Shown: piece after piece, positions 2,988-56,570 of the stretch
Numbering within the stretch: position 1 is the stretch's first letter
Layout of the letters: every line of letters begins with the position of its first letter
Assembly (NCBI GenBank): GCA_000091205.1
Contig: AP006501.2
Length of the DNA: 64,000 bases
From: Cyanidioschyzon merolae
Lineage: Eukaryota
Strand: one strand, 5' to 3'
Position numbers and translations under genes: made by a program
Notes under the pieces: generated by a model
Told to the model about the DNA's origin: nothing
Seen by the model: the letters and a program-made list of their open reading frames with translations, nothing else
Databases searched by the model: none

Positions 2988-3752
2988 ATGCCTATGAAGA
3001 GAGCGAAAAAGAACAAAGAAGCGCGCTGCTACAAGTGCTCCAGAATTGACTCCTCTGTGTATAACAGAATCGCACCGCTTTGGAGGACAAACTGCACAGC
3101 CGACGTTATCCTCGCGCCCACACGGTTCCTCAAGAAGCCGCACCTGATTGAGGGACGACGAGTCTACCACACATTCGGGTTCTGGCTCGCTGAAACCCAT
3201 CACATACTAGAATGGAAACCGTCCATCAAGCTAGCTCGGGAGTGCAATCTAAAGTTTGAATCTCGTCCCGTCGTCATCAGCACCGTCATTTACGGGCTTT
3301 TTGTGTGGCTGCTTCTGTTTTCTCTGTTCTATCTCGCGCTTGGGATACACCGGTCACTCCATTCCCGCTGGCTCGATTTTCAGCAGGCGGGCAATGTAGA
3401 ATACAGCGTCCAAGTCCCTATTGCACAGCTTACGACTGTTGCCGACGCATTTGATGCACAGACAGGAGTTGCGATCTGCGCTTCGCTTCCTACGTTCATC
3501 ACCTTTGGGTACAGCGTCGGTGCGAGCCTCCGCAGCGATATCACTCGCTTGTGGTCATGTGTTACCGCACAGGTCCACTACAGCTCCTCTTCATCCGAGA
3601 GCCTCCTGGCGGCGAATGAACACTTGCCTCATCGCTTGGTACATGCTCTTGACAAAAAAGGAAGGCTAAACTCGATGCCGTTCTCCGTTTCCGCACCCGG
3701 CGCCCTACGCTTTGATCACGGGCTCCGTCTGGGCGACCTCCCTGGTGAGTAG
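2988..3752 (+). CDS. hypothetical protein with a hydrophobic segment (VVISTVIYGLFVWLLLFSLFYLALG); no family recognised
   Basis: 254-aa ORF from the track. Only a predicted transmembrane-like stretch supports it. Other-frame ORFs overlap it and it sits next to a repeat copy, so it may not be a real gene. Confidence 0.25.
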   Translation: MPMKRAKKNKEARCYKCSRIDSSVYNRIAPLWRTNCTADVILAPTRFLKKPHLIEGRRVYHTFGFWLAETHHILEWKPSIKLARECNLKFESRPVVISTVIYGLFVWLLLFSLFYLALGIHRSLHSRWLDFQQAGNVEYSVQVPIAQLTTVADAFDAQTGVAICASLPTFITFGYSVGASLRSDITRLWSCVTAQVHYSSSSSESLLAANEHLPHRLVHALDKKGRLNSMPFSVSAPGALRFDHGLRLGDLPGE

Positions 3753-3939
3753 TCTGTCCGCAGCATGTACGAGCACGCGCTGCTCTACTCATTAGGGCAT
3801 TAGCGGAAGGCGATGTTCTTCGTGATCAGACGAGGGCTAGATGGCAGATCCAAGCTGGAGGACAAATCGCGAAATTTCTACCCGAATATGCCGCCGTCCG
3901 GCAAATCGGTTACACAGGCCCAATAGAGGCGATCGCTGC

Positions 3940-4570
3940 GATGACAGAAATCCACGATCAAGATCATTTTCCACGCAAGCACAAGAGCCAGGAGTCTGTG
4001 CGAGCGGATCTCGTTCGAGACATCATGCTGCTGTTGAATGTCGTATCAGAGATGTACACAAAAGAACCACACATACATGTAGAGCGGATCCATCTACGAC
4101 GTGAAAAGTTCAGTGAACTTTCGGCATGAGCTTCTGCGAAAACTCTATAACGGCCGACGTCGAGATGATGTCGTCGTCAATACAGCAGCACGACTTGCTG
4201 CGCCCGCGATTTGCTTTCAACAAGAACTTCAGCAAACTTGCAGAATGTGCGGTCCCAGTATGCTATATGTAAGGCATGGAGCAGAGTGGCGGCTTGCGCC
4301 CACGACTTGATGATCAAATCGTTCATTGTACGTACCGTTGATCGAGTGTATCGCGAATCATCTCAAATCCGGTGACTCAACAGGTTCTAATCGAAAAGTA
4401 TCGAAGCAGTCACTCCGAAAACACAACTTGGATCCGAACTTCAGGTATAAAATCGGATACCTCTGTTGCTGCACTTCGAATGTCAACGCTGTATATCTAC
4501 GACAGGGGTCGGGGGAAACGATAAACAGGAACCGATCGCGTATTTCTGTGCTCCATTTTCATTTTTCTCC
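3940..4570 (+). mobile_element. Copy G, a degraded TnpB-like C-terminal remnant
   Basis: Four blocks appear in the expected order: 'ESVRADLVRDIM' (RuvC-II-like, E→A), 'FRHELLRKLYNGRRRDDVVV' (matches FvrqLeYKaewyGkkvvkV), 'LQQTCRMCG' (matches TSQTCSkCG) and 'CCCTSNVNAVYLRQG' (a remnant of CxxC…NAAxNILRxG). Motif-level only. Confidence 0.4.
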
Positions 4571-5001
4571 GTAGAGGTGTAGGATCAGGAATCGTGGTCA
4601 AAACACCTCTAGTGCGTGAACATTACGAGTCCGTAGCAAAGTGACCGTAGCGCTTCAAGAGTCTCGATCCCAGTCCACCAGCCTCAGCGCAGTGTCCCCC
4701 GAAAGCACGGGCTTGGCCCAGCGATCCTCGTGATGTACGGCCTGCTTCAGCGCCTACTGTGCCGCCGGACACCCCGACCCCGACACACGCACCATCTTGA
4801 AACCAAAAGCGTAGCGGTGCGTTGCAGCTGTTGGATCCCAAGCGGCAACCGGACACGGAACGCGAGGCGTTTCAGATGACATGACGCAAATCGCAATTTG
4901 AATCGCATCGGAGTTAAAACAAAGCTTCAGCAGTTGCCTGGTAGTGCGCTGTCGTACAACTGGGCTGCAACGGATCCGCAGCTGACTTTTGAACGTTCTG
5001 G

Positions 5002-13399: not shown

Positions 13400-14090
13400 T
13401 CCAGTTTGCGCCGGAAGGGTTCTCTCCTAACGGCATGAACCAATGCGTTCATTTCCAAGAAATAAGGAATGAGCTGGGCTGTATACTCCAAAATGTCGAG
13501 ATGGAGGGAAGGTAGCCGACCGCTGCGGCGATAGAAAACCATGGAGAGCTGATAGAGCACCAAATGGCCCAGAGGGCGCGAATTCGCGGACTGCTTACAT
13601 TGACGAATTCAAGAACAGACAATAAACGCATGGAACTCTTGAACCGAGACTTTCAAGGCGCTATCAATATCAGACGATGTGCGGTGTTGAAGACAAGACC
13701 CGAGGATCTGACGCAATCCATTTTCTTGCGGGGCCAGCCTTTCAGGGTCGAAGTGTACAAGGAGAAGCTGAGACCGATCGCAGAGGGTCGGTCAAGAAAG
13801 GCTCGAAGGCGTGTCCAGGTGGGTAGCTATGTTTACCCTCCATGGCTGGGAAGCTTTTTTTTGTTGCAGTGAACGTCTTCTGTAGAACGCCAAGAAACGT
13901 CGCTCCGACACAAAGCGATCTAATACTACGCACGTACTCGAAGGGTGCTGATCGCAAGCAAAGCGTGGATCGCTACTCCCGTCTGTGCATGAAATGTGTA
14001 CGCGGTATCCGGAAGGCGCAAGACAGGAACTTTAACGCTGCCGTGAACGTCCTTCGATTGCTTGCAATCGATCTAAAGCGAACGTAAGAA
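13400..14090 (+). mobile_element. Copy B of the TnpB/Fanzor-like element (5' region + S1 + zinc-ribbon/RuvC-III S2)
   Basis: ORF 13564..13872 (…NKRMELLNRDFQGAINIRRCAVLKTRPEDL … GSYVYPPW) is followed in another frame by ORF 13842..14087 (…YSRLCMKCVRGIRKAQDRNFNAAVNVLRLLAIDLKRT*), which reads CxxC…D-R-N-F-N-A-A-V-N-V-L-R-L. An upstream TGCGTTCATTT box (~13430) resembles the 5' regions of copies A, C and D. Confidence 0.6.
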
Positions 14091-14700
14091 GACAGTCGGC
14101 GTGAAATTCGGAGATAAACGAGAAGAGATGGAAGCATTCACAGATAACGGCCACAAAAGCTCGCGCGTTTATGACAACGGAAAGCGCCCCAAACTTTAGG
14201 ATTCGTGTCCGAGTTAATGGACATGTTCCATGTGATTCTGATACCGGTGAATAGACAGCGTAGGCAATCGTGAAATCGTTAGTAGGTATTTTGTGTGCCT
14301 CTCTCCATGCCATTTGCTGGAAAGTCGTTTTTTCCGTAACATCCGATGGAGTAATGTTTGGGCGGTTCTGTGGGCTCCGTCGTCGTCGCTGACGAAAATT
14401 TCAGTAACCACAGCAGATACCAAATCGTTCGGAAATAACTGGGTACTTAACAGTTCAGGCGGATGCGGTCCGTATCGCTGCGTGGTGCGCGCCCAGCTTT
14501 TGCCCGGTGTGGAACAGTGCTTTCTCTCCAGTGCCGCAGCGGCCGGGCGACTTGCGAGTCACGGCTGGTACGAACGAGAGTGGGTCACTCGACCAGCTAC
14601 TTCGGCAGACCAAAGCTTGGGTTGCCAAGCGTCGTTTCTGAACGTGTGTTTGTGCCACGAGACCCTGCTGCAAGAAACGCCCAAAGGCTCAGGTTGAAGA

Positions 14701-32865: not shown

Positions 32866-34033
32866 CCTAGCAGAGCAAACCGCGTCTCTGAAACGCTAAA
32901 CAGTCAACAAGCAGGCACCCCTACCCAGGCGACGCTGAGTGTGCGATTCTGGCCCGCTCAAGGCAACGGATTGGTAATTAGCTTAGAGAAAGGTTGTTGG
33001 CACTGCGTCGTGGCCAGAGCTACCGACACGCAGCCTCACGTGTTGATGGTCCAGAGCCAGCGCAAACGAAATCCACAGCAAAATTTAGCGACACTGCCCC
33101 GAAAAACTTTACAATACACAGGAACTGGGGAAAGTTGATCAGTACCCCACACGAGTGAACGTGCACAGCAGCATATATTCGTGCTTGCCCCGAGAAGCTC
33201 CGCGCCAAACAGGCTGCTCGCTGACGGGCAACGAGACGCTGTTTCTTTGTAACGGTACGTTTTCAGGGGCAAAGCCTAGGCGGGCGGCAGCGCGCGAGCC
33301 TGCCTCACGGGGCACGTATTCTCGCAGGAATGGACAACCTATGCAATGCTGTTGTTCTATCGATCTGGATGAAGAACGCGTTCCGTAGGTGTCGCGGGAT
33401 CGCTAATCATGCCTTTTAGTGGATGTTATCCGAGGTTTGCCCGGGAACGGCACCGTTCGATCCAAGTCAGAGAAGCCTGGCGAGGCACGAATGCACGCAC
33501 AGACATTCGGTTGGCAGAGAACTTCTCAGCGTGCCTTGAGGGCGTCTCTGAACACGAGCCATCCCTGCTGGTGGAGCATACCAAAAGAAACGCGGGTCAG
33601 AATGAGTGTAGAAATATGTGTTCCACGGATTCTTCTGGCAATTTTGGTATGCAAAAGCAAACGAAACATGGTGCCCAGAGACGCGCCAATGCACCATATG
33701 TGTAGCGCTGAACAGACACTGTGGCACAAGAGTTAGATGGGGGAAACCTCTGCGTAGAAATACAAAAACCCGAAGTTCAGGGGCACATCAGAACACAGCG
33801 CCACTACGGCATTCTGGGCTATCCCAGCTTCTGGCGAGCGCCGGGTCGAACTGGTACCCACAAGGATACAACAAAGCCGTTCCGTCGCTGTGCGGCATCC
33901 GCACCAGTGATCACCGCGCCATCGTCGGCACAACCGGCAGACTCAGCACCCGCAGGATCGTTTGAACGAAAGAGCACCTACGACGTGATGGCCGTCTCTG
34001 GTTAGAGATGGTACCCGTAAAATGATGAAGGTT

Positions 34034-34640
34034 CTACGAGTACAGAGGGTAAGTATATACACACCTGCAGACGCGTCCCAGTCTTTTTTGATTGGCTGCC
34101 TGCTTTCGGCTGCAGTTTCTCCCTGCGCACTTCGAGTCTGAGATGCTGCCCATAAAGTTCAATCGCGCTAGCTCCTCGGGTCTCGACTTCAACGCCGCAT
34201 ATCTACTGACATTGATGGCGGCTTTGAAGTCTCGGTTCACAAATTCCATGCGTTTCTTGCTGGCGCCGCTGCTTGTACTCACCAGTGTAAGTCGTCCTCG
34301 AAGTCGTGGCCTCGGTGCTACAGCAGTATCGTCGTCGCCGTCCCGTCGGGCAAACACCTTTACTGGACTATCCCCCTACTTCGTCTTCGCCACTTGCTCT
34401 TTTCCGCTCGATGGTCGGCGAAAAGGGGAATTTTTTCGTTTCCTTTCCGGGAGCCGGCGATGATGGCCCTTCAGGATCCCCGGCTTTCATATCCATACCT
34501 TTTCCTTGGGGTTTTATCTCTTCAAATGAACGCACTTCGAACGCGTCTGCTATAAACCGCGAATAAGCATTTGGTGACACACATCTGGATGTGAATCACA
34601 ATCGAGATGAAATCCATAGCATTGAACTCCTGTGCCATCG
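34034..34640 (-). mobile_element. Copy C, a short (~0.6 kb) internally deleted derivative that retains N- and C-terminal TnpB-like ends
   Basis: ORF 34368..34580 (−) reads '…YSRFIADAFEVRSFEEIKPQGKGMD…' and matches the TnpB N-terminal signature 'kAyKfRLyPtkeQ'. ORF 34034..34357 (−) reads '…KKRMEFVNRDFKAAINVSRYAAL … SKCAGRNC … RVCRCV'. The nucleotide sequence is co-linear with 5900–6440 and, in reverse orientation, with 56060–56560. Confidence 0.65.
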
Positions 34641-35859
34641 GAGCACCGCGAATGTCTGGCACGCGAGGCGCCCAGGGGACTGAGGTCCGTCCGCCCTACA
34701 CCAGGGTTGCTGACCCGAGGTCTGCGTACCGGAACCGCGAAGGAGCTTGCCAACTCCTTAGTCAATAGTTTGGTTGGGTTGTATTGGCGTACGCCATATT
34801 CGCCTGACTGCGTTGCAAGGTAGCGTAGCTGCTTTTGAAACGGAGCTAGCCCTGGTCCACGGTTCGAAAGTTGCGGGCGTGATGCGCGGCCCCATGCCCC
34901 GGAGGTTTGCCATTGAGGGCTTCAAGTTCTCGCTGTATTTGATCGTACCGTTTTGCGCTGTTGTGTTCTTTGGTTCCAGCGATCACTCCTGGCTCGAGCA
35001 AGCTGTCGAGCGGTGGCGCTACGTCCAGTATCCCGTCAACGAAGAGTCAACGCTGACCTCCGCTGAAATCACAAGAAGGGTGTTTAAACAGCCGAAAACC
35101 GGGGCAGCTGAGGACCATCGAAAGTGAGCGAGTCTCGCGAAAGGGCGCCGCCCTTGCGCCTTCCGGAAGACACCCGTCTGGTCACTCTCGATGAGGTTCT
35201 GCAATGTTGCTGACGATCTCAACAGCAGGATGCGTGGATGGAAGCGTGGGCTTGCATGCTCGTCGAGACCTGAAATCGAAGAATACCCAGGCCTGCGCAG
35301 ATAACAGCATCGGTTCAGAAGCCAAAGTCGCAGTCTCCATAAGCAGATAAGAAATGACATCGGAACGGCCGGCTGTCAGACACAGGCACAAGCCATCGCA
35401 TATCGAAGAAGCTCGCTGGCCTCTATTAGACATCGTCATCTTACCCAAACGCTCACATCATTCCTTGTGAAAAAGCCATGGACAACGTAACGCCGAGATC
35501 GAGGCCTCTGTGCTGCATAATGCCTGCAACGAGCACGTTGGTAATGTCTAGTGTCAGCGATTTCTCCCATGCGCCACAAGAGATAAACGATTGCATCTCA
35601 AGAGCTCACAAATAGGGAACGGCTTGCCTCGTTCAGCGCTCGCTTCGAAAAATTTTAGCCCTGTCTGCGAGGCGACAACGCGTATCGTAATGCAGATTTT
35701 TCTCTTCGACAGAACCTTGGCACAACCTAGCTATCCCCGATCGCAGCGCCTGTTCGCAGCGCACAGGGAAGCATCAATCGTTCCACCTGCTTCCAAGTTC
35801 CACACGCCGTGCTTTCCCCCGAAGGAACCAGTAATTTTTACGCCATAACGTGTGCCGAG

Positions 35860-36160
35860 TGCATGCTATGAACACCAGCCGTAGCGCCTAAACCGCTGGC
35901 GCAGATGCATCACAGAGACAGAACAGCTTTTCCATTCCACAGAGGGCGTCGCCCGAGCAATGCTACACCTGACACGGAAACAGGGCTAATTATGATTCTG
36001 GGATCCTGCAAGCTGTGCAGACGGACGCACTGCCTGCGACAGCGCGAATCGACATTATAGGAGACCACTGCGACCAGGGCGACGCCCAGGCGCAGGCTAC
36101 CGGCTCCTAGTCCCAGAATGATATGCGTTGCGGATGAGTTGGTCAGGTCTCAATAAAGCA
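35860..36160 (+). repeat. Dispersed repeat R3, copy 2, immediately upstream of element copy E
   Basis: See R3 copy 1. Confidence 0.55.
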
Positions 36161-37470
36161 CCTGCCACTGGGAGGAGCATCAAGCACTAGCCTGGGAGAC
36201 ATGTCCAGCTCGCGGGAGTTTCCGCCTGTAAAGTAAACTTTCGAAGGTATGGATGTCTCTTCCCCAGTTTGCAGTTTCTCGAAGAGGGAAAAGAAATCAT
36301 TATATCGTTGCTAGTGAATCGTGAGTCTCTGTTCTTTGTTCTAAATAGCGCGGTCGATATGCGCACCTCGAGATTTGGGAGTTACGAGACACGACGCGCA
36401 TCTCGCCATGAAGGGAAATACGATCGTGATCATTCGTTGTCTTCTTGCTCTAACGACAAGTTGCATTCGCGTAAAGTCCTAGCAAAGTATTGTTTTCATT
36501 TCAATCGTGTTTCAACTCTCAGGTTAGTGTACTCAAGTGATTTTTCACGGTTTATACCGAATGCGCTCAAAGTGCGTTATAAGAAAAATTAGGAAAAGGA
36601 AAGTTACGGAAAGGGAAGCGGAGGGTCCTGGAGACGCGGTTTCGTCGGCTAGCGGAGAAAAACGAAAAACAGTGCGGAGCAAAGCGGAGCACGAGAAGAC
36701 CAAGGAGCAAATGCAGGAGGCCGCACGTCAATGGCTGCAAGAAAGGCGACACTACGACGATATGGTAGTGAAAGACTGACTTCTCGGACATACCAGGGAT
36801 CCATCCAAGCAAAAGTTGTGAGAGGCCATCAGAAACCGTGTCGATTCGTACTCCATGAGTGTTACAAAGGCTTCGTCAGGGATCATGTATTTGGTGAGGG
36901 AGATGTATCGCGACGTGACGCACATGGAAACAGTCGAGAATCCGGAAGGGTTTTTCAACATGGCGTCTATCCGCCACCTGATGCTCGGCTCAGGGGAGAC
37001 GTCGATGAAACATGAGCGAGTGCACGCCCTCCACGAAAATCACACCAAATATCGCTTCAACGGTATTCGATACAGGGGTGACTGGGGTATTTACACCTAC
37101 GGGGCGATGAAGTACATCACGAACAAGAATAACCACATGATCGTGAACCTCAAACGTCTCGTGATATGCGCCGTCTTTGTGCTGTACCCGGGCCTCTCTC
37201 CAGAGGAATGAGATGGGCCATCGTCAGTGCCATCACCAACGATCGTCATCATGAAGATGAGGTCGAATTTGTGGACAAGAAGACCTCACGCAGGAGCACG
37301 AATAAAGCTTCTGCCCTGCGTGCGGCTACTCAAGAGCATCGTGCAGTCGTGGGGCTGGTCAATCCAGCAGAAGAGGTATCAGATATGGAATAAAGCATGG
37401 GAAAAGAAGTAACAACCAAATCCTGCGCTATTTCGTATTCCTGAACCGAGAACTCGAACACAAGGCGGAA

Positions 37471-38247
37471 ATGGAGCAGGGTGTGGGGAACAATGCAGAG
37501 TCAGAGCAACGGAAGGCTGCGCTTCTGGAGAAGCGCTTCGACGTCGTTCGTATCTGCAACATCAAGTCACAATTTGGTACAATCGGCTTCAGAGTTCTTT
37601 ACGGCATCATGAACGAGATCTGTCCGGAGTTCGATGTAAGGAAGATAGAGTTCACCGGCGAAAACCGGGAATTCCATTGGAAAAATATCTTCGATTTCAA
37701 ACGTCTCAAAACGAGTAAGCAAAAAATATTCACGAGGATGATAGAAACCGATGGGGTATCCATGTGTGTACACTATCCGCGCTTGAAGGCAGATGGTCCT
37801 GTTGCGTCGTCGGCGTCGCCCGTGACGAAGCATGAAGGTGAGAAGAAGGCGGATCCTACGACGCAGAAAGTGCGGGGAAACGACTTTGTCGTTGGCGCGG
37901 CGAAGCATGAAGATGAGAAGGAGGCGGATCCTGCGACGCAGAAAGTGCAGGATAACGACTTTGTCAGTGGCGCGAACCCCGGAAACACGAATATCATAAC
38001 CATTGCAGCATGCAAGCGTGCGGGAGATGGTAAGGACGGCAACTTACGTCTGAAAGACACGCGTCTTTTGAGGTTCTCGAGAGCAAGATACTATCGAGAA
38101 TCCGGTATAATGAATGCGAGGAAGAAAATCGACACATGGAATGCAGGAATGAAGGATCACCTGGAAGCTATGAGCGGGGTAACGAGCCGCGGAGCGGACT
38201 TTGAAGCTTTTCTGAAATTCATGGGAGTTCGTGCTGCTCACTGGTAG
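37471..38247 (+). pseudogene. TnpB/Fanzor-like ORF fragment (C-terminal half, long variant) carrying an internal 75-bp tandem duplication
   Basis: Its start (MEQ…EQRKAALLEKRF) and end (…FLKFMGVRAAHW*) are homologous to ORF 38549..38926 (MEQ…QKHRALTEEQMERRAKF … GVMYARW*). A duplicated block [25 protein letters not shown] / [25 protein letters not shown] lies at roughly 37835–37985. Confidence 0.55.
37835..37985 (+). repeat. 75-bp tandem duplication (2 units) inside the copy-E ORF
   Basis: catgaaggtgagaagaaggcggatcctacgacgcagaaagtgcggggaaacgactttgtcgttggcgcggcgaag is followed directly by catgaagatgagaaggaggcggatcctgcgacgcagaaagtgcaggataacgactttgtcagtggcgcgaacccc. Confidence 0.85.
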
Positions 38248-38548
38248 GCGCTGTGGAGAGAATATACCAAGCCCCGGTGTTCTCGTCTGTGTATGAACTT
38301 GTACTGTGGGAAGAAGCGTGCATTTGCCAACTTTTTCTATCAGTTGAACGCCTTGGCTGGAGGACGAGAGTCAGAGAGTCGTAACAGCGACTGGAGCAGG
38401 GCTCTGCGCGTCCAAGAAAGGGAGCATACTCCCTGTATCGACAAGAGCGTACAATGAGTGCGCTCACCGTTTTGTTGTAATACCGATAGATGAGTTCCGA
38501 ACGTCATACATACACCGTGAACTGGGACGTACACTTCACAGGGTCGAG

Positions 38549-38926
38549 ATGGAGCAGTACCAGCAAAGCCCTGGAGATATACAAAAACACAGAGCGCTGA
38601 CGGAAGAGCAAATGGAACGGAGGGCGAAATTTCGTGGACTAGTCGCACTGGTGAGTGTACCCAACGGCAAGAAACGTATAGAGTTTCTGAACCATGACTT
38701 TGACACAGCAATCAATGTAAGGCGATGTGCGGTGCTGGAGAACAGACCCCCCGCCCCACCCCCCGAGTTGACTAGAGCCAACTTCGTCGGGCGACCTCTC
38801 AAGGTCCCGTTGAACGGAAAGAAGCTGAAACCAATAGTAGCTGGCCGGTCGAGAAAAGCCTGGGAAGCGACTGCGCGTCTGCGTAGAGACATCCACGCTG
38901 TCGGCGTGATGTATGCGCGTTGGTAA
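38549..38926 (+). pseudogene. TnpB/Fanzor-like C-terminal fragment (S1 type: KKRIEFLNHDFDTAINVRRCAVL)
   Basis: Shares the RDFxAAINV block with ORFs 13564..13872 and 34034..34357, with which it is co-linear. Confidence 0.55.
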
Positions 38927-39310
38927 ACCTGATTTGCCGGCGGTAGTTTCTTCAAAAAAAGCGCTCCGCAGCCAGCCATTTTGTGTGCGCAGCGAGCGTC
39001 ACTGCCCCTTTCAAAGCATATATTTCATATCCTAGTATCATAAAAGTGAGGGAGGTGTATTCTGAATACGAATATTCTGACGTGAAGAGCTCTTGATTTT
39101 TTTAAACACGACAGCAGCCCATACACGGAAGGGTGACGGCGACGGTGCGAGCGTGACAGGTTCGTGTACTTATCGAAGCAACATATCGCCCTCTAGGCCA
39201 CTGTTTTGCGCGGCGATATTTCCGCACTGAGGTGGGGTGTTCGTATTTTCTGTTTACAGGTGCCATATATTCCTTCATACGGTGCTAAGCTGTGATATAT
39301 TTCGGAAAAT

Positions 39311-45864: not shown

Positions 45865-48792
45865 TCAACCACGCGAGTCCAAATCCCAGGCAGGTGAAGG
45901 CATCGGTTCCGCTTCGCTGCCGTTCGTGAAACTTACCTGCGCAATACGATCTCCAGTATCGAGTCGCTGTACGTAAACACCGGTAGCCCAGCGACCCTGA
46001 ATGGGGATGCTATCGCACGGTACGCGCACCACAGTACCCCGCTCAGTGATAAGAATAATCTCTGAGTCCGGTTCTACGCAACGCAGGCAGAGCAAACGAT
46101 CCTCCGTATCCATCTTGAAGCTGGTCGCACGCTTACCCCCGCCGCCTCGCCTCTGAATACGAAACGCATCCACATGGAGGCGTTTTCCGTAACCCTGTTC
46201 GGTAATCGCCACCAGGTAGCGCTCCGAGGTGGTGACGTCTGCACAGCCGTCGACCACATCCATATCGGCTATCGCGTCGTTCTTCCGCAGCCGCATGGAA
46301 CGCACACCCTGGGTTCGGCGTCCCGTCGACCTAAGCTGCGCTTCCGAGAGCGAGAAACGAACCGCAAGACCAGTTGTCGATGATATGATCACCGAGTCGT
46401 CGTTACCGCAGAGACGTACCCAGCGCACCGTGTCGGTATCACGCACATTCATGACAATCAGACCCCTGGCGTTCATGTTCGCAAATGCGGAGAGCGGCGT
46501 CTTTTTCAGCCAGCCCTGCTGTGTGAGTAGAAGCAGATAGCGATCCGGGGTAAAGGCGGATATGGGTACCAGCGCCGCGAGACTTGTCTCTGCATTGCCG
46601 ATGCTCGCATCGAAAACCGGTAACAGAGCGCTCAGCGGTGCACCGCGAGCTACGCGCGACGCCTGTGGTATCTGGAACGCTCGAATCGCATAGGCAGTGC
46701 CTCGTTGGGAGATCGCCAAGATGGTATCGTGATCGCGGCAGGAGAAGAAGTGAGCGACTTGGTCGTCTTCGCGAATACGCGCCGCAGCCTTGCCCCGAGT
46801 ACCGCGCCGCTGCGCTTCGAATTCGCGCATCGCCATTCGCTTCACGTAGCCTTGTTTGGTGGCGATGATCACCGATTCCTCATTGGGAACCAGGTCGATA
46901 TCGGAGAGTTCTGGCTCTTCGGGTGAAATCGCGGATCGACGTGGTCGTCCAAATTGTGACTGGATTTCCTGCAGCTCCCGAGTGATCATGGCCATAACGA
47001 GTTCACGTCTCGCGAGTGTATTCTCGAGCTCCGCGATTTGCGCCAGGAGCTCCTGATGCTCCTGATCGAGACGACCCATCTCTAGTTGGGTCAGGCGACG
47101 TAGCTGCATTCCCAAAATTGCATCTGCTTGGCGCTCGGAGAGTCCAAAGGCACCATCAGGGTCAACGAGTGCCCTGCGGGCGAAACTCACGTCGCGGGCG
47201 TTCCGCACGATGCGAATGACGGCGTCGATATCGCGGAGCGCAAGACGCAGGCCCTGCACGATGTGCTCTCGGTCTCGTGCCTTGTTCAGCTCAAAAGTGC
47301 AGCGTCTTTGAATCACCTGCACTCGATATTCGAGGAAGACTTCGAGCGCACGTCGTAGACTCAGTTTTTCAGGGCGTCGCCCTACCAACGCAAGCATGTT
47401 ACCATTGAAAGCCGCCTGCAGAGCAGTCTTCTTGAACAGCTGATTGAGCACAACGTTCTTATCTGCATCACGCTTCAGTTCAATGACGATGCGCATGCCG
47501 TCGCGGTCACTCTCATCCCGCAGATCCGCAATACCGTCCAGTTTCTTCTCGTTCACGAGTGTCGCCATTCGTTCCAAAAGTTGCGCTTTGTTCACCTGAT
47601 ACGGAAGCTCGTGGACAATAATTGCTTCACGCACGGGGCGGTTTTTCGCTCGAACCGTTTCGAACGAGGTACGCGCGCGCAAAATAATAGCTCCCTGGCC
47701 GGTTCGATGCAGGTCGCGGGAGCCGCGGAGACCCATGATAATACCACCGGTGGGAAAGTCCGGTGCGGGAATCAGCGCTTCTAGTTCCGCTTCCAGTAGT
47801 TTGGGATTCTTGATAAGGGCAATGAGCGCGCTCACGAGCTCGCGCAGGTTATGTGGCGGAATGTTCGTAGCCATCCCGACGGCGATCCCTGAGGCGCCGT
47901 TCAAAAGTAGCTGTGGCAGGCGTGCGGGTAGCACCACGGGTTCCTGGTCCGAGGCATCAAAGTTTGGCACCATATCGACCGTGTCTTGGTCAATGTCCGC
48001 GAGAAGGACGCGTTTGCTGAGCGAGGTCAGGCGACACTCGGTATAGCGCATGGCAGCTGCCTTGTCGCCATCGACAGAGCCCAGATTCCCTTGGCCATCC
48101 ACCAGGGGCTCCAGCATCGAGAAGGGCTGAGCCATGCGTACCAGTGCATCGTAGACCGCGCTGTCGCCATGCGGATGATATTTTCCCAACACTTCACCGA
48201 CCACGCGAGCACACTTGCGATACGGGCCGTCCGGATCCAAGCGCAGTTGATTCATTGCGTAGAGAATGCGGCGATGAACGGGTTTCAGCCCATCACGCGC
48301 GTCGGGAAGCGCCCTCGCGTGGATCACGCTCAGAGCATATTCCAAGTACGATCTCGCAAGAACGCTACTCACCTCCGTGTTAATAATGCTTTCATGCGGG
48401 GAGGCTTCCAGAGTACCAGCTGAGCCTGCTTCCGAAGGCTCTTCGCCCGCCGCTGGTGCAAGTTGCGCCCGAAGCTGATACGCACTGGCGCCTAGCGAGC
48501 GGCTCGCTCGGCGCCGACAGCCACCGCTCCCGACGAATGAGGAAGCGCCTGATCGCGCCGGGATAGAGAACCAGCCTAGGGCTCTCGGCTGTCGCCCAAA
48601 AGGAGCGGAGACACGGCCTTGTCTGAGCGTCACACGACAAGTGATGCCGCGTTTGACGCTCAGGTCAGTTGTGGGCAAGGCGCCCAAGTTTCGTTGCTCC
48701 GGGCCAGCGAGCACCCCCACAAAGACCAAAGCGCAATACGAGCAACCATGTTTGTAAGAATCAAGTTCCTGCATTGCCAGTAAAACCTGCAA
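45865..48792 (-). CDS. gyrA: DNA gyrase subunit A (organelle-targeted, nuclear-encoded)
   Basis: [55 protein letters not shown] and the active-site context are GyrA N-terminal signatures. A C-terminal beta-pinwheel is present. The ORF has a ~130-aa N-terminal presequence, Ser/Arg-rich over roughly its first 80 residues. Confidence 0.9.
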
Positions 48793-49899: not shown

Positions 49900-51200
49900 A
49901 ATGCTCAAGCCGTTTGCATCCTGGTCCCATACAAATGCATGGTGTGCGCGAAACCCCACGTAACATGAACGTGGAACGCTGAACCGCTTGCAACGTTGCT
50001 GGCATTCGATATTTTCCGAACTTTTCCGAAGATATGCAACCTGAAGATTCGAATTGCATGAATGAAGGCTGGCGGATCCGTATGTAGTTTCAGGATTGTG
50101 GGTCATGTCCAGGGAGTGGCTCCCGCGATTTCTCGGCACTGGAATTCGATACGTCACCGTCATCAAGATGATTTTTCGTGGCGCGCTCGAACAAGGGCTC
50201 CTAAAAGAATCGCTATCAGCATCGAGGGCACGCGCAAAAGCCTCTGCTCGTCCATTTCCGTACTCGTAATAGGTTCAAATCACGCATTCTTCAAGGTTTC
50301 GATCTTTGTGTTGCAGGGCGCCTGTTGAGTGCAGCGATTCGCACCACTCAATTGACGACGATGAAGAACATTCCACGTGATCCATTGACGATGTTTTCAT
50401 GCGCTCACGCCGAAACCTCGCTGACCGCCTCTCGGCATATCATCGATTCTGTTCGCTAGATCAACCATCATCTGTTCCGTGTCATCGATGAAATGGCACT
50501 GGGCTGCAGCATGATGCTTTTTGCGGGAGTTGCTCCCAGACGTTCAAATCTCTTCTATTCCTTTTACACGGAAATGGGTCTTGGACTAGGAGTTCAGTTA
50601 CGGTAGCGATCGTTGCCACTGCAGTGTGCGTCATCATGTCGCATAAAGGGAACGGAGACAATTGAAGACTTCTCGGTGCGTTCTCTAATCAGGCGTTCCC
50701 CTCCGGTACCCGTATCACCATGGAAAACATCGCGTTCAAGATCTCCTCTGTCGAATGGAATAGCATGTGCTTGCATATGCAGTCGATAGCGTACTCACCG
50801 AGGGTATCGCGCAGACGCAGCCCGTGATCGATGTTACGTCAACGGGCGCGAACATGGAGCAGAGCACCCTGATGAGCTGCATGGAACCCCAGGGGGCACG
50901 TATCAAACGATGAAGCAAGCCTTCTCGTTCCAAGGGGCGGCTATCGGGGAAGCATTTATAATGGATATACGGAAACACCTGATCATTGCCAAGTGTCGTC
51001 CCGGTGAAGCGCGCAGAAAGGCGGTATGTAAAAAATGAGAATAGAAAGCGATGCGCAGATCGCAGCGTTCGCTTTTAGCATAAAATACGTCGACAACTGC
51101 CGAGAGAAACAATGTAGAGACTTTCAGGCTGCCATCAGCACACTTCGACTGCTGACAATCAAGCTGAAGGGAAAGGAAAACCAAGCAGTCGCAGAAACGG
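49900..51200 (+). mobile_element. Copy F1, a ~1.2 kb repeat; direct partner of F2, lying 3' of HisA
   Basis: Nucleotide similarity to 52880–54210 across several blocks: CGATATTTTCCGAACTTTT, GCAGCGATTCGCACCACTCAATTGACGACGA, CATGGAAAACATCGCGTTC. It ends with ORF 51035..51301 '…YVDNCREKQCRDFQAAISTLRLLTIKLKGK', a CxxxC + RuvC-III-like motif. Confidence 0.6.
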
Positions 51201-51713
51201 CCCCTGGAGGCTGGTCAATACTCGTGTTGATGACAGTGAGAGTCATCCAAAACTTGAGCGTTTATGCCAGGGCCCGACGCCCTTTTTCCATTTCATTCTG
51301 ACATGGGTGCTGATGGAAGCAACCGAACGCATCAGCGTTCACCTCATGCCGGGGATGCCAGTCAAGCCCTATAGACACTGATCAACGGTACCGTTTTGCG
51401 GGGCAGCAGCAGCGGCAGCAAGTCCCTGTTTAACATTCGTGTCCAAATGCTTTGCGGACACGTGCCGTGCTGCTGCGAGTCGCGGCACTCGGTAACGGGT
51501 CGAAGACCTCGTACCCAGCGAATTGCCCGAAGCCTCCCGAATTCAAGAAGCGAAAAAGATTGCCACCGACTCTCCGAAACAGCAGCGCATCTGGTGCACG
51601 GAAGCAGCTCATGTAACAAGCGACAGCGTTCCAGCGCTAGACCCGGGGCCAATGGCAGTCTGGTTGCCTTTTGCAACATGCCTAGGATTTGTATTTGCCA
51701 TTTCGAGGTACTT

Positions 51714-52688
51714 TCATCGAGCAAGCATTTTCTCCAGTCTTCGTTGCCACTCCACAACCATATCAAAGGAAAGCGCGCCTCCGAAGATATCCAAAGCGGA
51801 ACCGATTGTGACATCTACTCGGCCGCAACCAACAAGTCGAACGCGTTCCAGGTCGGCTAGGTCTCGAACGCCACCCGCATACGTTGCCGGTACTGGGGAC
51901 CCGACAGCCAGCTCATGCACCAATGCTTCGTCGATACCGATTTGCTTGCCTTCAACGTCCACGGCATGTACTAAAAACTCTGCACAGTATTCGCTGAGCC
52001 ATTCCAGGAGCTGGCCACTTATTCGCAAGTCAGTTCGTCTTGTCCATCGATCCGTGTAAACGTAGTATGCGCTTTCGCTCCCCGAAATATGACTTCGGCA
52101 GCTGAGATCAAGAACCAGACGCTCTCTGCCAATACGGTGGGCTAGGCGAAGCAGTCGGGACTCATCCAGCCGACCATCCCGAAACACGTACGAAGTGACG
52201 ATCACATGGCTGGCACCGGCCTCCAAAAACCGTTCTGCATTCTCCTCCGTAATGCCACCTCCGAGCTGCATTCCCTGCGGATATGCGGCAAGAGCAGCAA
52301 GCGCAGCACGTTCCGATGCTTCGCGATCCCCTCCGAGGAGGATGATATGGCCTCCAGGCAGCGCATGCTCGCGGTACAGCGAGGCGTAGTAGGCCGCGGG
52401 TTGCGTCGCTTCGAAGTTCACCACTGACGCCCGGCTCCCGTCTGCTGATAGTGATGACCCGACTATCTGTTTAACCTTTCCGTTATGAATGTCAATGCAG
52501 GGTCGAAACCGTGTCACGCGTTCAGCAGTCGCACGAGCGGTCGGCGTCCCGGCTGTGAGCCTGGGTCGCGCTCGAACACGGGCAACTGGCGGGTGCCTGG
52601 CGCCCTCCGGGGATATTCCGGTGATTCGTCTCGTCAACGGCGGAGCGTGAATCCCCGAACTGGTGCTTGGAAAACAGAAGAGGAGCAT
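51714..52688 (-). CDS. hisA: ProFAR isomerase (HisA / HIS6)
   Basis: FRPCIDIHNGKVKQIVGSSL is the eukaryotic-type HisA N-terminal motif, and a (beta/alpha)8 fold follows. There is an N-terminal extension of about 60 aa that resembles a transit peptide. Confidence 0.85.
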   Translation of the reverse strand: MLLFCFPSTSSGIHAPPLTRRITGISPEGARHPPVARVRARPRLTAGTPTARATAERVTRFRPCIDIHNGKVKQIVGSSLSADGSRASVVNFEATQPAAYYASLYREHALPGGHIILLGGDREASERAALAALAAYPQGMQLGGGITEENAERFLEAGASHVIVTSYVFRDGRLDESRLLRLAHRIGRERLVLDLSCRSHISGSESAYYVYTDRWTRRTDLRISGQLLEWLSEYCAEFLVHAVDVEGKQIGIDEALVHELAVGSPVPATYAGGVRDLADLERVRLVGCGRVDVTIGSALDIFGGALSFDMVVEWQRRLEKMLAR

Positions 52689-52879
52689 GAGAACGGCTCA
52701 GCAGGTGTAGGCTCATGCGCAGTGCTCGACGGCTGTCACAGGTACCTCGACGACTGGAGACTCAAGGGTTGTGTATGAAAGTCGTCCGGAGACACGAAAA
52801 CACGCGTTTCAAAAACTTTTCCCTGAGGTCCACCACGCTCCGCTCTTCACCACTGGGTTTCGGGAATGCGCCTCGCAGC

Positions 52880-54210
52880 TACGCCAGAGCAGTTCAAGCC
52901 TTGTGCACGCCAGACAGGCACAGGCGCGCTGCGTCTTCCACGGCAACACCCGTGTCGGATGAAAGTGGAACACTGGGCTGCTCGCATTGGTGCAGCTTTA
53001 CGATTTTTTCCGAACTTTTTTAGATGTAAAACCGCGGCTTTCGGAAAGAAGGAATATCGGCTTACGGGTTTATACGTAGTTTTAGGATTTTTGGGTGTCC
53101 TTATGGAATGGCTTCTTCGAACTTTGTCCGCTACAGCTCGTTTCGTCACCGGAATCCAGATGGGATTCTAGATCAGAATCTGGATGATTCGCAAAGTCGC
53201 CGAACATGAGTTCGAGAATCAGTCGACATCAGTTCCCGATTCATTCGAGCATGCCTCCAGTCTTCTACATTCCTTTCATGTTTCATGTTTAAACCAGATT
53301 TTCTTCAACTCTCCGATCTATGCCTTGCAAGGTGTTTCGTGGGCGCAGCAATTCGCACTTCTGGATTGACGACAAGAAAAACTCGCGGCCGTCGCTTGAC
53401 GACAAGTTCCAGAGCTCATGTCGAAAGCTCACCCAAGTCGTCACGTTTCGTAAACGATTCTGCTCGAAAGACGAGTCCTCCTCTATTTGTGGCCCTCTAC
53501 AAAACGACATTCGACTCCAGCACGACATCGCTTTTAGGGCTTGCTCCTAGAGGCTCCTATTTCCTCTGTTTGCGTCGAAACCGGATTCGGAGTCAGACTT
53601 GAGCCATCGCACCGATTGCTTCTAGTGGAGCGTTTGTCACCGCTGTGCACGAAGAGCGTGAAGACGAATCTTAATTTCTCGACACGTTCTCTGGTCTGGC
53701 TTTTCCTTCCGGTGCTCGTTTCATCATGGAAAACATCGCGTTCCACAAATCCTCTACCGAATGGAACAGCGTGTGCGTGTGTGTGCACCCGGCATCCTTC
53801 TCACAGAGGGATCCTCCAGAAAACACCTGTTACCATAGATTACGTCACCTGGCACGTAACTGGAGCAGGGCATCGAGGGGAGCCCCCTGTACCTGTCAAG
53901 GGATGTATCGAGCCATGAAGCAAGCCTTCTCGCATCAAATGGCGCTGGCCGAACGAACGAATGAGCGTGGTGAGCTTGTAGGAACACTTGACTTGGTCCA
54001 AGTGTCACCGATGCGACGGGCACATTGAGACTGTACGCATCGAAGAGGAAAATTGCAACTGACGCGTAGATCGCGACGACTTCCTGTGCACGAAATGCGT
54101 TGACAATAGCTGGAAACTGCGAATTCCGGACTTGAACGCTGACATCAACATCCTTCGACTTGTGAGAATGGAGCTGGAGAGACTAGCACATTTAAAGCCG
54201 GGTATGAGAG
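52880..54210 (+). mobile_element. Copy F2, the direct partner of F1, lying 5' of HisA on the minus strand; it carries the best-preserved zinc-ribbon/RuvC-III block
   Basis: The boundaries and motifs are the same as in F1. The C-terminal segment is listed as a separate feature at 53982..54218. Confidence 0.6.
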
Positions 54211-54218
54211 AAAGCTAA
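53982..54218 (+). pseudogene. TnpB/Fanzor C-terminal zinc ribbon + RuvC-III, interrupted by an in-frame TGA and a +1 shift
   Basis: Frame-0 translation reads EHLTWSKCHRCDGHIETVRIEEENCN[TGA]RVDRDDFLCTKCVDNSWKLRIPDLNADINILRLVRMELERLA. The blocks are 'TWSKCHRCDGH', 'CTKC' and 'DLNADINILRL'. This corresponds to the OrfB_Zn_ribbon consensus 'TSQtCSkCGh…CpnCG…DRDlNAAiNILR'. The preceding frame-2 ORF 53726..54028 ends '…FSHQMALAERTNERGELVGTLDLVQVSP', which matches 'F..qLeYKAewyGkkVv.Vdp'. Confidence 0.6.
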
Positions 54219-54320
54219 AGTACGAGATTACAGAAAAAGCCTACCAATTCTGGTATCGTCGGCAATTGAGCAAGAAAGCGCTCCCAGGAGCCGAAACATC
54301 CCTGTTCGGCGCTGTGGACC

Positions 54321-54340
54321 TTCACACACACACACACAGA
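54321..54340. repeat. (CA)8 microsatellite
   Basis: The sequence reads cacacacacacacacaga. Confidence 0.85.
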
Positions 54341-54383
54341 TATACAGCGGCTTTCTGCATTTTTCTCAGCCCAAAATGAGGTT

Positions 54384-55805
54384 TTAGACGAGATAACCTA
54401 CCTCGGGATACGTTTTGGCAAAGTACTGCGTCCACTGCTCCAGGCTGTGACGCTGCTCAGATGTGAGCATCTTGATATCGAGCGGTGGCTTCGTCGGATC
54501 CACCATCTCTGCGGAGAGGTCCGCAAACACCAGTGCTCGGCTGGCGTCGCGCCCTGCTAGGATGTGGTACGGCTCGCCTGCTCGATAGTGGTGCGCGGCC
54601 TGGGTCACATCGAACACCCGTCGATTCACAGCGACATAAATAGGACGCTCCGACTGAGATCCGTCAAACATTGCCAGTTCCTCTGTGGTGAACGGCCGAA
54701 CGGATGGCACCCTCTCCAGTGGTGAAGCTGTGCGCTCCCAAGCGCCGGCATCGCGCTTCGCAATCGTACCGTCGGCGCGGGGTGAACCCTTCTGGGCCAG
54801 CAATTTGCGAAAATATGTCCAACTGGTCTCGTTCGGTGTCATGTAATTCGACGGTGCGTGCATGTACTCTGGATGGTGTTCCTCGACGTATGCACGGACG
54901 TCCTCGGGTAGATCCTGGTACCCGTTCTCGAGCTTCTTCGTGAAGCAATGATACACGAGACGGCCAGGGCGTTCACCCATCTCCATCCAGGGTAGCCACT
55001 GACCCATGCGAACCCAACTGCCCTGGCATGGAACGGATACGAGATTCGAATCATGAAGATCATCCACGCGTGCGTAAAGTTGGAAGAGCTCCGCGCTCTC
55101 ATAAAAGGGGCTCGCTGACTCAGCGGGGAACTCGGATGGCGGCAACGGATTCGGGTAACGGAGGAAAATTTCAATATGCCAGCAGAGGTCTGCCCCGACG
55201 CGTGTGAACGGAACCAAGAATGGTTTGCCATCACGCGGATTCTTCTCCAGAAACTGCAGGTTGACCGGGTCGTTCCAAACGTGAACGACTTGATTCTCCA
55301 TTCCCGTGAACGGGTTGTTCCAAGTTCCGTGTAGAATTCGACGATTGTCCGGATCCCTATACAGTCCTACTTCGCGGGTGAGAATGCGCCAGCCGCCTTC
55401 TACTTTCACGCAGCGCGCGATATTGTAACCCTCGAAGCCGAGGATGTGTCGCGCACCCGCGTCAGCGATGTAGGCGTGAATCTCGCCGCCAAACCAAAAC
55501 ACGACTTCTTGATCCGGAACTAGGGACGCTCGAGTTTTGATAAAGGCTCGTAAGTTTTCCTCTGAGCTGTTGCCGATCTTCTCAACATCTATTTGCGGGC
55601 GTAGTGCGAGCAAGTCGCGAGCGCTCGTCACCAGAGCTCGTTGCTGCCCCTCGGGACCGTTCACCTGTTGTGCAAGCACCACTCGATGGCGTCTTGACCC
55701 CGCTTTTCTGTACACGGCGTCGTCTGCGTGCCGCAACGAACGACTTGGTCCATAATTCGTCCGCCTGAACGAACACGGTATTGTTATGTACATAGTCTGA
55801 ACCAT
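54384..55805 (-). CDS. fusion protein: uncharacterised ~340-aa N-terminal domain + C-terminal MAPR/cytochrome-b5-like heme/steroid-binding domain
   Basis: The C-terminus (FTTEELAMFDGSQSERPIYVAVNRRVFDVTQAAHHYRAGEPYHILAGRDASRALV) aligns with PGRMC/MAPR cytochrome-b5-like domains. I do not recognise the N-terminal domain. Confidence 0.7.
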   Translation of the reverse strand: MVQTMYITIPCSFRRTNYGPSRSLRHADDAVYRKAGSRRHRVVLAQQVNGPEGQQRALVTSARDLLALRPQIDVEKIGNSSEENLRAFIKTRASLVPDQEVVFWFGGEIHAYIADAGARHILGFEGYNIARCVKVEGGWRILTREVGLYRDPDNRRILHGTWNNPFTGMENQVVHVWNDPVNLQFLEKNPRDGKPFLVPFTRVGADLCWHIEIFLRYPNPLPPSEFPAESASPFYESAELFQLYARVDDLHDSNLVSVPCQGSWVRMGQWLPWMEMGERPGRLVYHCFTKKLENGYQDLPEDVRAYVEEHHPEYMHAPSNYMTPNETSWTYFRKLLAQKGSPRADGTIAKRDAGAWERTASPLERVPSVRPFTTEELAMFDGSQSERPIYVAVNRRVFDVTQAAHHYRAGEPYHILAGRDASRALVFADLSAEMVDPTKPPLDIKMLTSEQRHSLEQWTQYFAKTYPEVGYLV

Positions 55806-56059: not shown

Positions 56060-56570
56060 GACTGGCGGGTTTACACGTTCACCTGAATTGTGTTCCACAT
56101 CCAGATGCGTGCCATCCACTGCGTGTTCGCAGTGTACAGCAGATGCGTTCGAAGTGCGTTCATTTGAACAGATAAAAATCCAAGGGAAAGATATGGACGT
56201 GCAAGTCGAGGATCCTGAAGGGATTTCAAAGCTACCTGCTTGATAAAACCCTCATCTTGCTGATTATCAAAAGGCGAAGAAGTAGAAAAAGGAGGTAGGT
56301 GAGATAACGTGCGTGCTCGACGGGATGATGTCGAGACTGTAGTGGAACATGGGGCACCAGTCTGAAGACTCCTAGCGTTGACGAGTTCATCTAGCATCAA
56401 TATATGCAAGGAGTTCGTGAACTGCGACCCCATCACCACCATCAATATCAGATGACGTGTGGCGCTGAAGACGTGAGACCCCAGGAGCTGACGCGATCCA
56501 GTTTTATGGGGCAGCCTCTGATGCTCGGAATGTGCCTGGATAATAACTGAAGCCAATAGCAGCGGGTGCG
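56060..56570 (+). mobile_element. Copy D, a short degraded derivative in plus orientation
   Basis: ORF 56040..56243 reads '…CTADAFEVRSFEQIKIQGKDMDVQVEDPEG'. A degraded '…EFVNCDPITTINIR*' lies at ~56420–56470 in a broken frame. 56075–56250 is the reverse complement of the 6250–6440 / 34470–34640 block. Confidence 0.6.

Follow-up and report, generated by a model that had tools for sequence, protein, structure and literature searches.

The HisA gene of Cyanidioschyzon merolae lies between two similar sequences in the same orientation. The first-pass annotation of this DNA regarded the arrangement as composite-transposon-like, which raises the question of whether the pair forms a unit with the gene, and of what kind of sequence the two flanking copies represent. 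The analysis covered a window of 64,000 nucleotides (contig AP006501.2), in which the repeat is called F and its full-length copies F1, F2 and F3.

Similarity and geometry of the copies beside HisA

Sensitive blastn of the 49-55 kb region against the window aligned 49965-51172 with 52959-54182 on the same strand at 62.0% identity over 1247 columns (E 1.1e-95). This confirms the same-orientation, co-linear placement around HisA that had been noted, rather than the short and patchy similarity (<60% over <200 bp) against which it had been set. The collinear span that brackets the gene is about 1.25 kb. A gapless repeat search recovered only two short blocks from the pair, at a spacing of ~3.0 kb, so the likeness is genuine but ancient; the longest identical run between F1 and F2 is 19 nt. 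The limits of the copies were set by anchoring on their terminal motifs (F1 49951-51309, F2 52945-~54350), and the features of the locus and of the other copies in the window are collected in Table 1.

F1 is located in the spacer that separates GyrA (start 48792) from HisA (stop 51714). The 5' end of F2 is 256 bp away from the HisA ATG, in agreement with its earlier description as lying immediately 5' of the HisA start, and its other end comes within ~33 bp of the DUF1838 stop. The HisA/DUF1838 spacer is thus occupied almost entirely by F2, and the 3' UTR of DUF1838 must extend into it because the stop codon is so close to the F2 end. That element sequence might be placed in the HisA promoter was also proposed; what holds of this is that F2 abuts the HisA upstream region and fills the spacer. 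The 3' end of F2 is degraded.

Table 1. Positions of F copies, their termini and neighboring genes in the window.
Feature	Position	Strand	Evidence
F3, third full-length copy, opposite in orientation to F1/F2 and 46 kb distant	3194..4581	-	blastn, nhmmer, terminal motifs
5'-truncated F copy, last ~315 nt with 3' terminal repeat	13934..14249	+	nhmmer, terminal motifs
GyrA-type topoisomerase gene, downstream of HisA	45865..48792	-	Pfam DNA_topoisoIV 2.8e-149, synteny
F1, full-length copy, 1359 bp	49951..51309	+	blastn, nhmmer, terminal-motif anchoring
F1 5' terminal repeat, degenerate, AAACCCCACGTAACATGAACGTGGAAC	49951..49977	+	terminal-motif anchoring, TIR tests
F1 3' terminal inverted repeat, TTCCATTTCATTCTGACATGGGTG	51286..51309	+	exact 3' TIR match
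HisA/HIS6 (ProFAR isomerase), intronless, 324 aa	51714..52688	-	Pfam His_biosynth 5.5e-26, homologues, synteny
F2, full-length copy, ~1406 bp	52945..54350	+	blastn, nhmmer, terminal-motif anchoring
F2 5' terminal inverted repeat, AACACCCGTGTCGGATGAAAGTGGAAC	52945..52971	+	22/25 match to F1 3' reverse complement
(CA)n microsatellite replacing most of F2 3' terminal repeat	54323..54338	+	direct read, alignment with other 3' ends
DUF1838 + cytochrome-b5 gene, upstream of HisA	54384..55805	-	Pfam, synteny

F is a dispersed family with fixed ends

An nhmmer profile of F identified exactly three full copies in the window and a 3'-terminal fragment (13950-14084, E 1.9e-17). The third full copy was also matched by blastn (3358-4565, minus strand) at 58-61% identity. 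A 29-nt degenerate motif is present in 3/3 full copies and was matched 0 times in 100 shuffles. At least four further copies were found, at the CMT031C locus on C. merolae chromosome 20 and at one additional site. The F unit is ~1.36-1.4 kb in size and is found in intergenic spacers, where copies in unrelated flanks nevertheless begin and finish at common motifs.

Four independent copies were compared in pairs; every identity falls at 55-61%, and the informative sites for the three possible quartet groupings are distributed 45/42/40, i.e., star-like. F1 and F2 therefore look like independent insertions and not like a duplicated pair. The proposed tandem insertion into a regenerated target site is not supported. 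An (F1,F2) grouping has 79% distance bootstrap, on account of which a very old local duplication is possible.

The ends of F form an imperfect terminal inverted repeat (TIR) of ~25 nt, CACCC.TGTCAG.ATGAAA.TGGAA. Comparison of the F2 5' end with the inverted F1 3' end gave a local score of 16, versus 5.9+-1.3 for shuffles (z 7.7), with the alignment starting from the outermost bases; the F1 3' terminus was also the best match of the F2 5' end among 332 windows of the element. For 4/4 independent 5' ends, the reverse-complement match to the F1 3' terminus ranked 0-2 of 332 windows, and end comparisons had a mean of 8.55 when inverted versus 4.85 in the direct-orientation control. The TIR matches at 16-22 of 24-25 positions. 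Inside any single copy it is no stronger than internal chance inverted matches, and in the window-rank test it was weak or undetectable at the degraded 3' ends of F2 and F3. Searches for more TIR sites, or for TIRs common to an unrelated ~0.3-0.6 kb module in the window (G), returned true F ends only. Each F copy has its own two ends. The sequence TGT...ACA lies just inside the outer bases; the outer CACC.../...GGTG are part of F, since independent copies conserve them and they are mutually reverse complementary. Nothing convincing as a target-site duplication (TSD) was detected at F1, F3, the young F-C, L015A or L015B, and the youngest complete copy was no exception; old copies may have lost theirs.

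HisA has kept its ancestral position

The HisA ORF shares 64% identity over 99% of its length with HisA of Cyanidiococcus, and the gene is single-copy. Cyanidiococcus (L002) and a closer relative from metagenomic data (L003) both keep the gene order DUF1838-HisA-GyrA-WD40. The comparison with orthologous loci that had been suggested thus gave a clear result: synteny is conserved, and neither F homology nor any other repeat flanks HisA in L002 or L003. Because both relatives have these neighbors without F, HisA was not carried in by F. We conclude that HisA never moved and that its position is ancestral. F itself is, on the sequences compared, apparently lineage-specific, as it is missing in Cyanidiococcus and the closer relative at conserved synteny, an absence that decay beyond recognition would resemble at ~60% identity. 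Among environmental contigs with ~99% identity, the F1-HisA-F2 arrangement is unchanged in all that cover the locus, and no structural variants were found in the six that span all or part of it.

Composite transposons and macrotransposons are expected to have near-identical flanking copies that can supply or bind transposase, cargo that has moved, and one TSD around the whole unit. Known examples, such as Tn10 and Tn5 among the former, in bacteria, and paired Ac/Ds or P elements among the latter, in eukaryotes, likewise have two copies flanking a cargo-like gene; the F copies differ in being non-autonomous, 62% identical and individually complete, and they bear no sign of joint movement. We consider it highly improbable that F1 and F2 jointly mobilize or duplicate HisA through their outer ends, or that a tandem insertion or duplication created both of them around it. 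The bracketing of HisA by two complete copies in the same orientation does invite such a view. So does the similar bracketing of CMT031C by a nearly identical pair, and experiments in C. merolae have shown that pop-out between identical direct repeats works (PMC13353863). Against this, two relatives that lack F have HisA beside its ancestral neighbors, the divergence between F1 and F2 is as large as that from unlinked copies, neither a TSD nor matching flanks were found around the whole F1-HisA-F2 unit, F has no coding signature, and no transposase or RT is encoded anywhere in the window. The environmental contigs give no structural variant, and by our estimate an adjacent pair is expected about 1 in 4 times by chance, given three full copies and ~22 spacers. 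Tandem duplication of an F-HisA unit was rejected, as the flanks of F1 and F2 share no similarity and the two copies have no sister relationship. The composite-transposon-like reading of the first-pass annotation is not upheld.

The pair had also been proposed as a substrate for recombinational excision or duplication of the gene. At 62% identity and with a longest identical run of 19 nt, F1 and F2 are a poor recombination substrate, in line with their constant arrangement; the idea gains some support only from the young copies at CMT031C (see below). For HisA, present as a single copy in its ancestral position, the flanking repeats are of little consequence, being too decayed to recombine or transpose.

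F is non-coding and evolves nearly neutrally

A six-frame test for a coding signal in F gave a synonymous fraction of 0.12-0.19 and 11-30 stops with no preferred frame, and tblastx matches between copies were scattered over all frames. The longest ORFs of the youngest copies had no Pfam match, and a 210-aa F-derived ORF used as a protein query matched nothing beyond its own locus. F as a frameshifted coding sequence or pseudogene, as chains of short minus-strand ORFs might indicate, was rejected on the tblastx and six-frame (synonymous, BLOSUM and stop) results. The window contains no tRNA and no match to an Rfam family at gathering score, and RNAalifold gave -128 kcal/mol over 1487 columns with a covariation term of +2.56, i.e., no conserved structure in F. 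A known or structured RNA was rejected on these grounds.

Compared with the ~99% identical relatives, F has diverged by 0.89%, against 1.23% for other intergenic DNA and 0.43% for coding sequence; the difference between F and other intergenic DNA has p=0.057. F evolution is near neutral, at about the intergenic pace. It seems unlikely that F is a selected functional non-coding unit beside genes, whether a lncRNA family or a promoter, terminator or insulator module. Several observations are in keeping with selection: indels are scarce given the ~40% divergence (gaps in 42 of 1200 columns), short blocks are conserved across all copies, F is slightly slower than other intergenic DNA, the DUF1838 3' end must fall within F2, and transcription of C. 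merolae interspersed repeats has been reported (PMC1955436). These are opposed by the lack of covariation, of a stable consensus fold and of an Rfam match, and by a divergence twice as fast as that of coding sequence. In addition, F has no consistent orientation to neighboring genes (it is antisense at HisA but sense at CMT031C), relatives have the same genes without F, and some copies are truncated or overwritten by microsatellites.

F as a probable TIR transposon relic

Fixed ends that form a ~25-nt TIR make F most likely a relic of a non-autonomous cut-and-paste (class II, TIR) element. Its features agree with such a transposon, with TIRs at the exact unit ends, dispersed copies, unrelated flanks and non-coding content. 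F resembles the non-autonomous TIR transposons that EDTA assigns to Mutator, CACTA or unknown groups in being non-coding, dispersed and intergenic with fixed ends and TIRs, and in having old decayed copies along with a few young ones. It differs from TIR transposons generally in that neither a TSD nor a known autonomous partner was recovered. At 1.36-1.4 kb it is longer than the usual MITE, and its TIR starts with CACC, not with the canonical CACTA. We consider it probable that F1 and F2 are separate old insertions of a decayed non-autonomous TIR DNA-transposon relic into the spacers around an unmoved HisA.

Judging from anatomy only, F would have relied for its movement on a transposase acting in trans from another locus. 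Copies would have inserted into intergenic spacers, presumably the sole tolerated targets in a compact genome, and two of them may have reached the spacers on both sides of HisA, in the same orientation, by chance. F1 and F2 would afterwards have decayed almost neutrally to ~60% identity, and the pair is probably now inert as a mobile or recombining unit. The only plausible present effect would be passive, with F2 making up nearly all of the DNA from the DUF1838 stop to the HisA promoter region. In practical terms, promoter or terminator fragments taken from such spacers (HisA upstream, DUF1838 downstream) are largely repeat DNA.

Spacers in C. merolae have been doubled in length by repeats, as compared with those of Cyanidiococcus (PMC9812998), and EDTA calls the C. 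merolae transposable elements class II (bioRxiv 2022.10.24.513474). The F family fits this published repeat expansion in spacers, and the anatomy of one of the families behind it (size, ends, TIR, non-coding content and near-neutral evolution) is now concrete. Such families are labeled inconsistently by pipelines, as LTR, class II or unknown.

Other element classes

LTR elements have 5'-TG...CA-3' termini, a 4-6 bp TSD, a PBS and PPT, and a gag-pol internal region. F shares with solo LTRs its size, the appearance of a direct pair and TG..CA inside the ends; its size of ~1.1-1.4 kb agrees with the mean 'LTR element' piece (2.09 Mb / 1930 pieces), F reads TGT...ACA just within its outer bases, and a direct pair around a segment resembles LTR-internal-LTR. 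RepeatModeler also assigns 12.7% of the C. merolae genome, most of its repeats, to 'LTR' (PMC9812998). That F represents solo LTRs or LTR-retrotransposon fragments is nevertheless, in our judgment, not likely. The conserved inverted CACC.../...GGTG extends outside TGT/ACA, the terminal inversion, at 25 nt, is longer than would be expected of an LTR, and no TSD or LTR-retrotransposon partner was found. The 'internal' regions are the host genes HisA and NT5C in ancestral synteny, and the window encodes no RT. LTR retrotransposons were not detected in the original genome papers (PMC1955436), and EDTA found class II elements only (bioRxiv 2022.10.24.513474).

Two further classes were rejected. A 3'-only F fragment would equally fit 5' truncation of a retroposon, but a poly(A) or simple-repeat tail is absent from the 3' end of every copy. 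By inspection, the ends of F do not fit a Helitron, with 5'-TC...CTRR-3' termini and insertion at AT sites.

Young copies at CMT031C

On chromosome 20, the NT5C gene CMT031C is bracketed by a direct pair of F copies that are 99.3% identical. NT5C of L015 is 100% identical to CYME_CMT031C, and gene order near CMT031C varies between contigs, adjacent to F copies. The arrangements are NT5C-F-PRPS, NT5C-F-Ubl and GLTP-NT5C, which may be true haplotypes or chimeras of metagenome assembly. This suggests that the younger copies at CMT031C still undergo conversion, and they may underlie strain-level rearrangements. A broader proposal, that young F copies are active substrates of gene conversion and of ectopic recombination, by which the order of genes would come to differ among C. 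merolae strains, is tentative and rather doubtful. If it is true, gene-bracketing direct pairs such as that at CMT031C would be poised for pop-out deletion or for joint movement of a housekeeping gene, and the HisA pair would be a fossil of this condition.

Relation to the WSV486-like repeat

The best-known C. merolae repeat is the 'WSV486-like' repeat, with 253 copies and ~5% of the genome (PMC1955436). It corresponds to CMe-1A, a Fanzor1/TnpB-bearing element of ~3 kb with ~150 copies, and ~70 more of its 635-bp derivative TE-N2_CMe; TSDs are likewise undetectable (PMC3627910). CMe-1A is like F in being intergenic, abundant and old in the same genome, with no determinable TSD. Membership of F in this repeat is very unlikely, as CMe-1A is described as ~3 kb long with a TnpB-like ORF, ~80% identity to its consensus and no TIRs (PMC3627910), and this description sets it apart from F, which is 1.4 kb long and ORF-less with TIRs and copies at 55-61% identity. 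Separately, the unrelated G module in the window would be a better candidate than F for TE-N2_CMe.

F copies around HisA

A gapped, sensitive blastn comparison of 49-55 kb with the whole window aligned the two copies of F, the dispersed repeat on either side of HisA, on the same strand (49965-51172 with 52959-54182) at 62.0% identity over 1247 columns (E 1.1e-95), confirming the co-linear, same-orientation pair described by the first-pass annotation. The same search returned a third full copy (F3) on the minus strand at 3358-4565. A gapless repeat finder gave just two short F1/F2 blocks, spaced ~3.0 kb apart, and the similarity is therefore old yet continuous. An nhmmer profile built from the three copies detected these and a fragment at 13950-14084, which covers solely the last ~135 profile positions and stretches to 13934-14231 in a whole-window self-comparison. 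On the strand opposite F3, a 254-aa ORF without a Pfam match (2988-3752, +) overlaps the element's 3' third; it is probably a chance ORF, not a gene.

Coordinates of HisA and of repeat copies in the window and at the CMT031C locus (contigs L015 and L019).
Feature	Position	Strand or orientation	Remark
F1	49951-51309	+	refined limits
F2	52945-~54350	+	refined limits
HisA ORF	51714-52688	-	bona fide His_biosynth protein
F pair, CMT031C	L015 1995-3105 and 4774-5881 = L019 7950-9232 and 10712-12060	direct	
G	5802-6404	+	58-70% identity
G	13470-13867	-	58-70% identity
G	34018-34618	+	58-70% identity
G	36488-36669	-	58-70% identity
G	38518-38901	-	58-70% identity
G	56078-56562	-	58-70% identity

The window contains long intronless ORFs with ~55% GC and spacers of 1-3 kb. 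Hot-spring metagenome contigs match it at 98.9-99.5% identity, and the best named relatives of HisA are from Cyanidiococcus (64%) and Cyanidium (62%). Cyanidiococcus (L002) and a closer metagenomic relative (L003) keep the order DUF1838-HisA-GyrA-WD40, and at neither locus was F homology or a repeat on both sides of HisA found. Since this gene order occurs in relatives without recognisable F, HisA is at its ancestral place; the comparison suggests that F came later or, less likely, decayed beyond recognition in the relatives. The DUF1838-HisA spacer of L003 has its own short repeats (8525-8703 with 9546-9722) and a ~235-nt palindrome (9408-9642), all unrelated to F, indicating that its long spacers were filled by different sequence.

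Judged by their sequences, F1 and F2 do not appear to be sisters: identity is 55-61% for all pairs among F1, F2, F3 and a chromosome 20 copy, parsimony-informative patterns number 45/42/40, and F1+F2 receives a distance bootstrap of just 79%. Each has a 5' and a 3' end of its own and is complete, and their longest common identical run is 19 nt. The arrangement is unchanged in all six environmental contigs from this locus (L001, L007, L008, L009, L013 and L014), which cover parts of it. With three full copies and roughly 22 spacers, we estimate that an adjacent pair would arise by chance about 1 in 4 times, and one in the same orientation 1 in 8. Together with the ancestral position of HisA, these results leave the composite transposon, tandem insertion and recombination substrate proposed for the pair unsupported. 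We conclude that the initial observation was real and its interpretation largely wrong, and that F1 and F2 are nothing out of the ordinary: two old transposon relics, in a genome whose spacers were already known to be filled with repeats.

The spacer between the DUF1838 stop and the HisA ATG is 1695 bp long; F2 takes up ~1406 bp of it, and ~33 bp remain downstream of DUF1838 and 256 bp upstream of HisA. F2 is thus next to the HisA start, as first annotated. We infer an element-derived 3' UTR for DUF1838 and, possibly, element-derived sequence in the distal upstream region of HisA.

Termini and classification of F

All F copies share a 5' start, (AA)CACC.GT.TC.G.ATGAAA.TGGAA, within unrelated flanks, and end, where the 3' end is intact, in TTCCATTTCATTCTGACATGGGTG; start and end are reverse complements of one another. 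The F2 5' and F1 3' ends match at 22/25 positions counted from the outermost base (local score 16 vs 5.9+-1.3 for shuffles). Over 20 end combinations the inverted orientation averages 8.55 and the direct-orientation control 4.85, and all four independent 5' ends have their best or near-best reverse-complement match, among ~330 element windows, at the F1 3' terminus. A putative terminal inverted repeat (TIR) is moderately well supported, and not more strongly, because F2 and F3, whose 3' ends are degraded, lack the signal there and, within a single copy, it is not distinguishable from chance internal pairs. In F2, most of the 3' terminal repeat has given way to a (CA)n microsatellite (54323-54338) that lies ~45 bp from the stop codon of DUF1838.

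Neither a target-site duplication nor a poly(A) tail was found at the F copies, nor RT or transposase in the window. The most economical reading is that F is a family of non-autonomous class II (TIR) transposons, now decayed. This fits published reports that C. merolae spacers are twice the Cyanidiococcus length "due to repeat expansion", with repeats making up 25.9% vs 3.2% of the genome (PMC9812998), and that EDTA re-annotation put every C. merolae TE in class II (bioRxiv 2022.10.24.513474). RepeatModeler assigns many C. merolae repeats to LTR, and this disagreement with EDTA indicates that such relics are poorly classifiable. The "WSV486-like" repeat of C. merolae, 3.2 kb in length (PMC1955436), was identified by Bao and Jurka as CMe-1A, ~3 kb, Fanzor1-bearing and without TIRs (PMC3627910); compared by description, F, at ~1.4 kb, non-coding and with TIRs, is a different repeat.

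F as coding sequence was ruled out: tblastx matches between copies are scattered over all six frames, the synonymous fraction is 0.12-0.19 and the stops number 11-30 in every frame (four independent lineages), and Pfam has no match for the longest ORFs in the youngest copies. F was likewise excluded as a known RNA or a structured one by the lack of Rfam or tRNA matches and by RNAalifold, which gave only -128 kcal/mol over 1487 columns and a covariation term that penalises the fold (+2.56). Per-contig divergence from ~99% environmental relatives is 0.43% for CDS, 0.89% for F and 1.23% for other intergenic DNA (F vs CDS, p=4e-4; F vs intergenic, p=0.057), and F is not noticeably constrained.

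Young F copies at the CMT031C locus

A single metagenome scan with a conserved 29-nt F motif recovered the three F copies of the window from a 99% population, as well as new copies at a chromosome 20 locus around CMT031C (NT5C). One of the metagenomes with contigs matching the window also yielded a contig that carries F and a gene whose product is 100% identical to CYME_CMT031C of Cyanidioschyzon merolae 10D, which, with the metagenome matches, assigns the window to C. merolae or to a relative at ~99% identity. The single gene CMT031C lies between two direct F copies that share 99.3% identity over 1111 bp, then just 85% toward the 3' end before becoming unalignable; copy B has a 73-nt tandem duplication. 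An identity drop as abrupt as this is typical of gene conversion or recent partial duplication, and the pair is a plausible pop-out substrate. In a comparison of L011 with L015, 1/593 positions differ in the NT5C gene and spacer, 87 differences lie in patches in the neighbouring F copy, and the downstream flank differs, with the break ~90 nt inside the element.

An outgroup relative (L023-L025) has the order FGase-RPS30-NT5C-Ubl with an F-free spacer of 890 bp, vs NT5C-F-PRPS, NT5C-F-Ubl or GLTP-NT5C in C. merolae-type contigs (L011, L016, L019-L022); in L016, F is directly upstream of the Ubl-side flank. The gene orders differ at F copies, so the breakpoints of the rearrangement fall at F, suggesting that young copies recombined ectopically; metagenome assemblies may be chimeric at repeats, and the differences reflect either such chimerism or F-mediated rearrangement.

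On the chromosome 20 contig L019, a further F copy, old and in fragments (2076-2590 and 3414-3752, -), lies between SOD and FGase, which indicates that F is common in the C. merolae genome. In the young chromosome 20 copies, the conserved ATTGACGAC motif has grown into a (GAC)n run (L015 ~2640-2700 and ~5420-5480; L016), giving poly-Asp and poly-Arg in spurious ORFs called there.

Other repeats in the window

G is a second dispersed module of ~0.3-0.6 kb, unrelated in sequence to F and not sharing its terminal repeat. Its size would fit the published 635-bp TE-N2_CMe / CMe-1A 5' region, for which it is a candidate. Several G copies are directly upstream of genes (Alg14, DUF1838), and one is next to the truncated F copy at 13.9 kb. 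The 6.4-kb stretch 32866-39310 lacks a convincing gene, its only ORF (258 aa) having no Pfam match, and contains three G copies and an arm of a further repeat pair (24212-24503 with 35757-36047, 64%); this is a repeat-rich island within an otherwise compact region.
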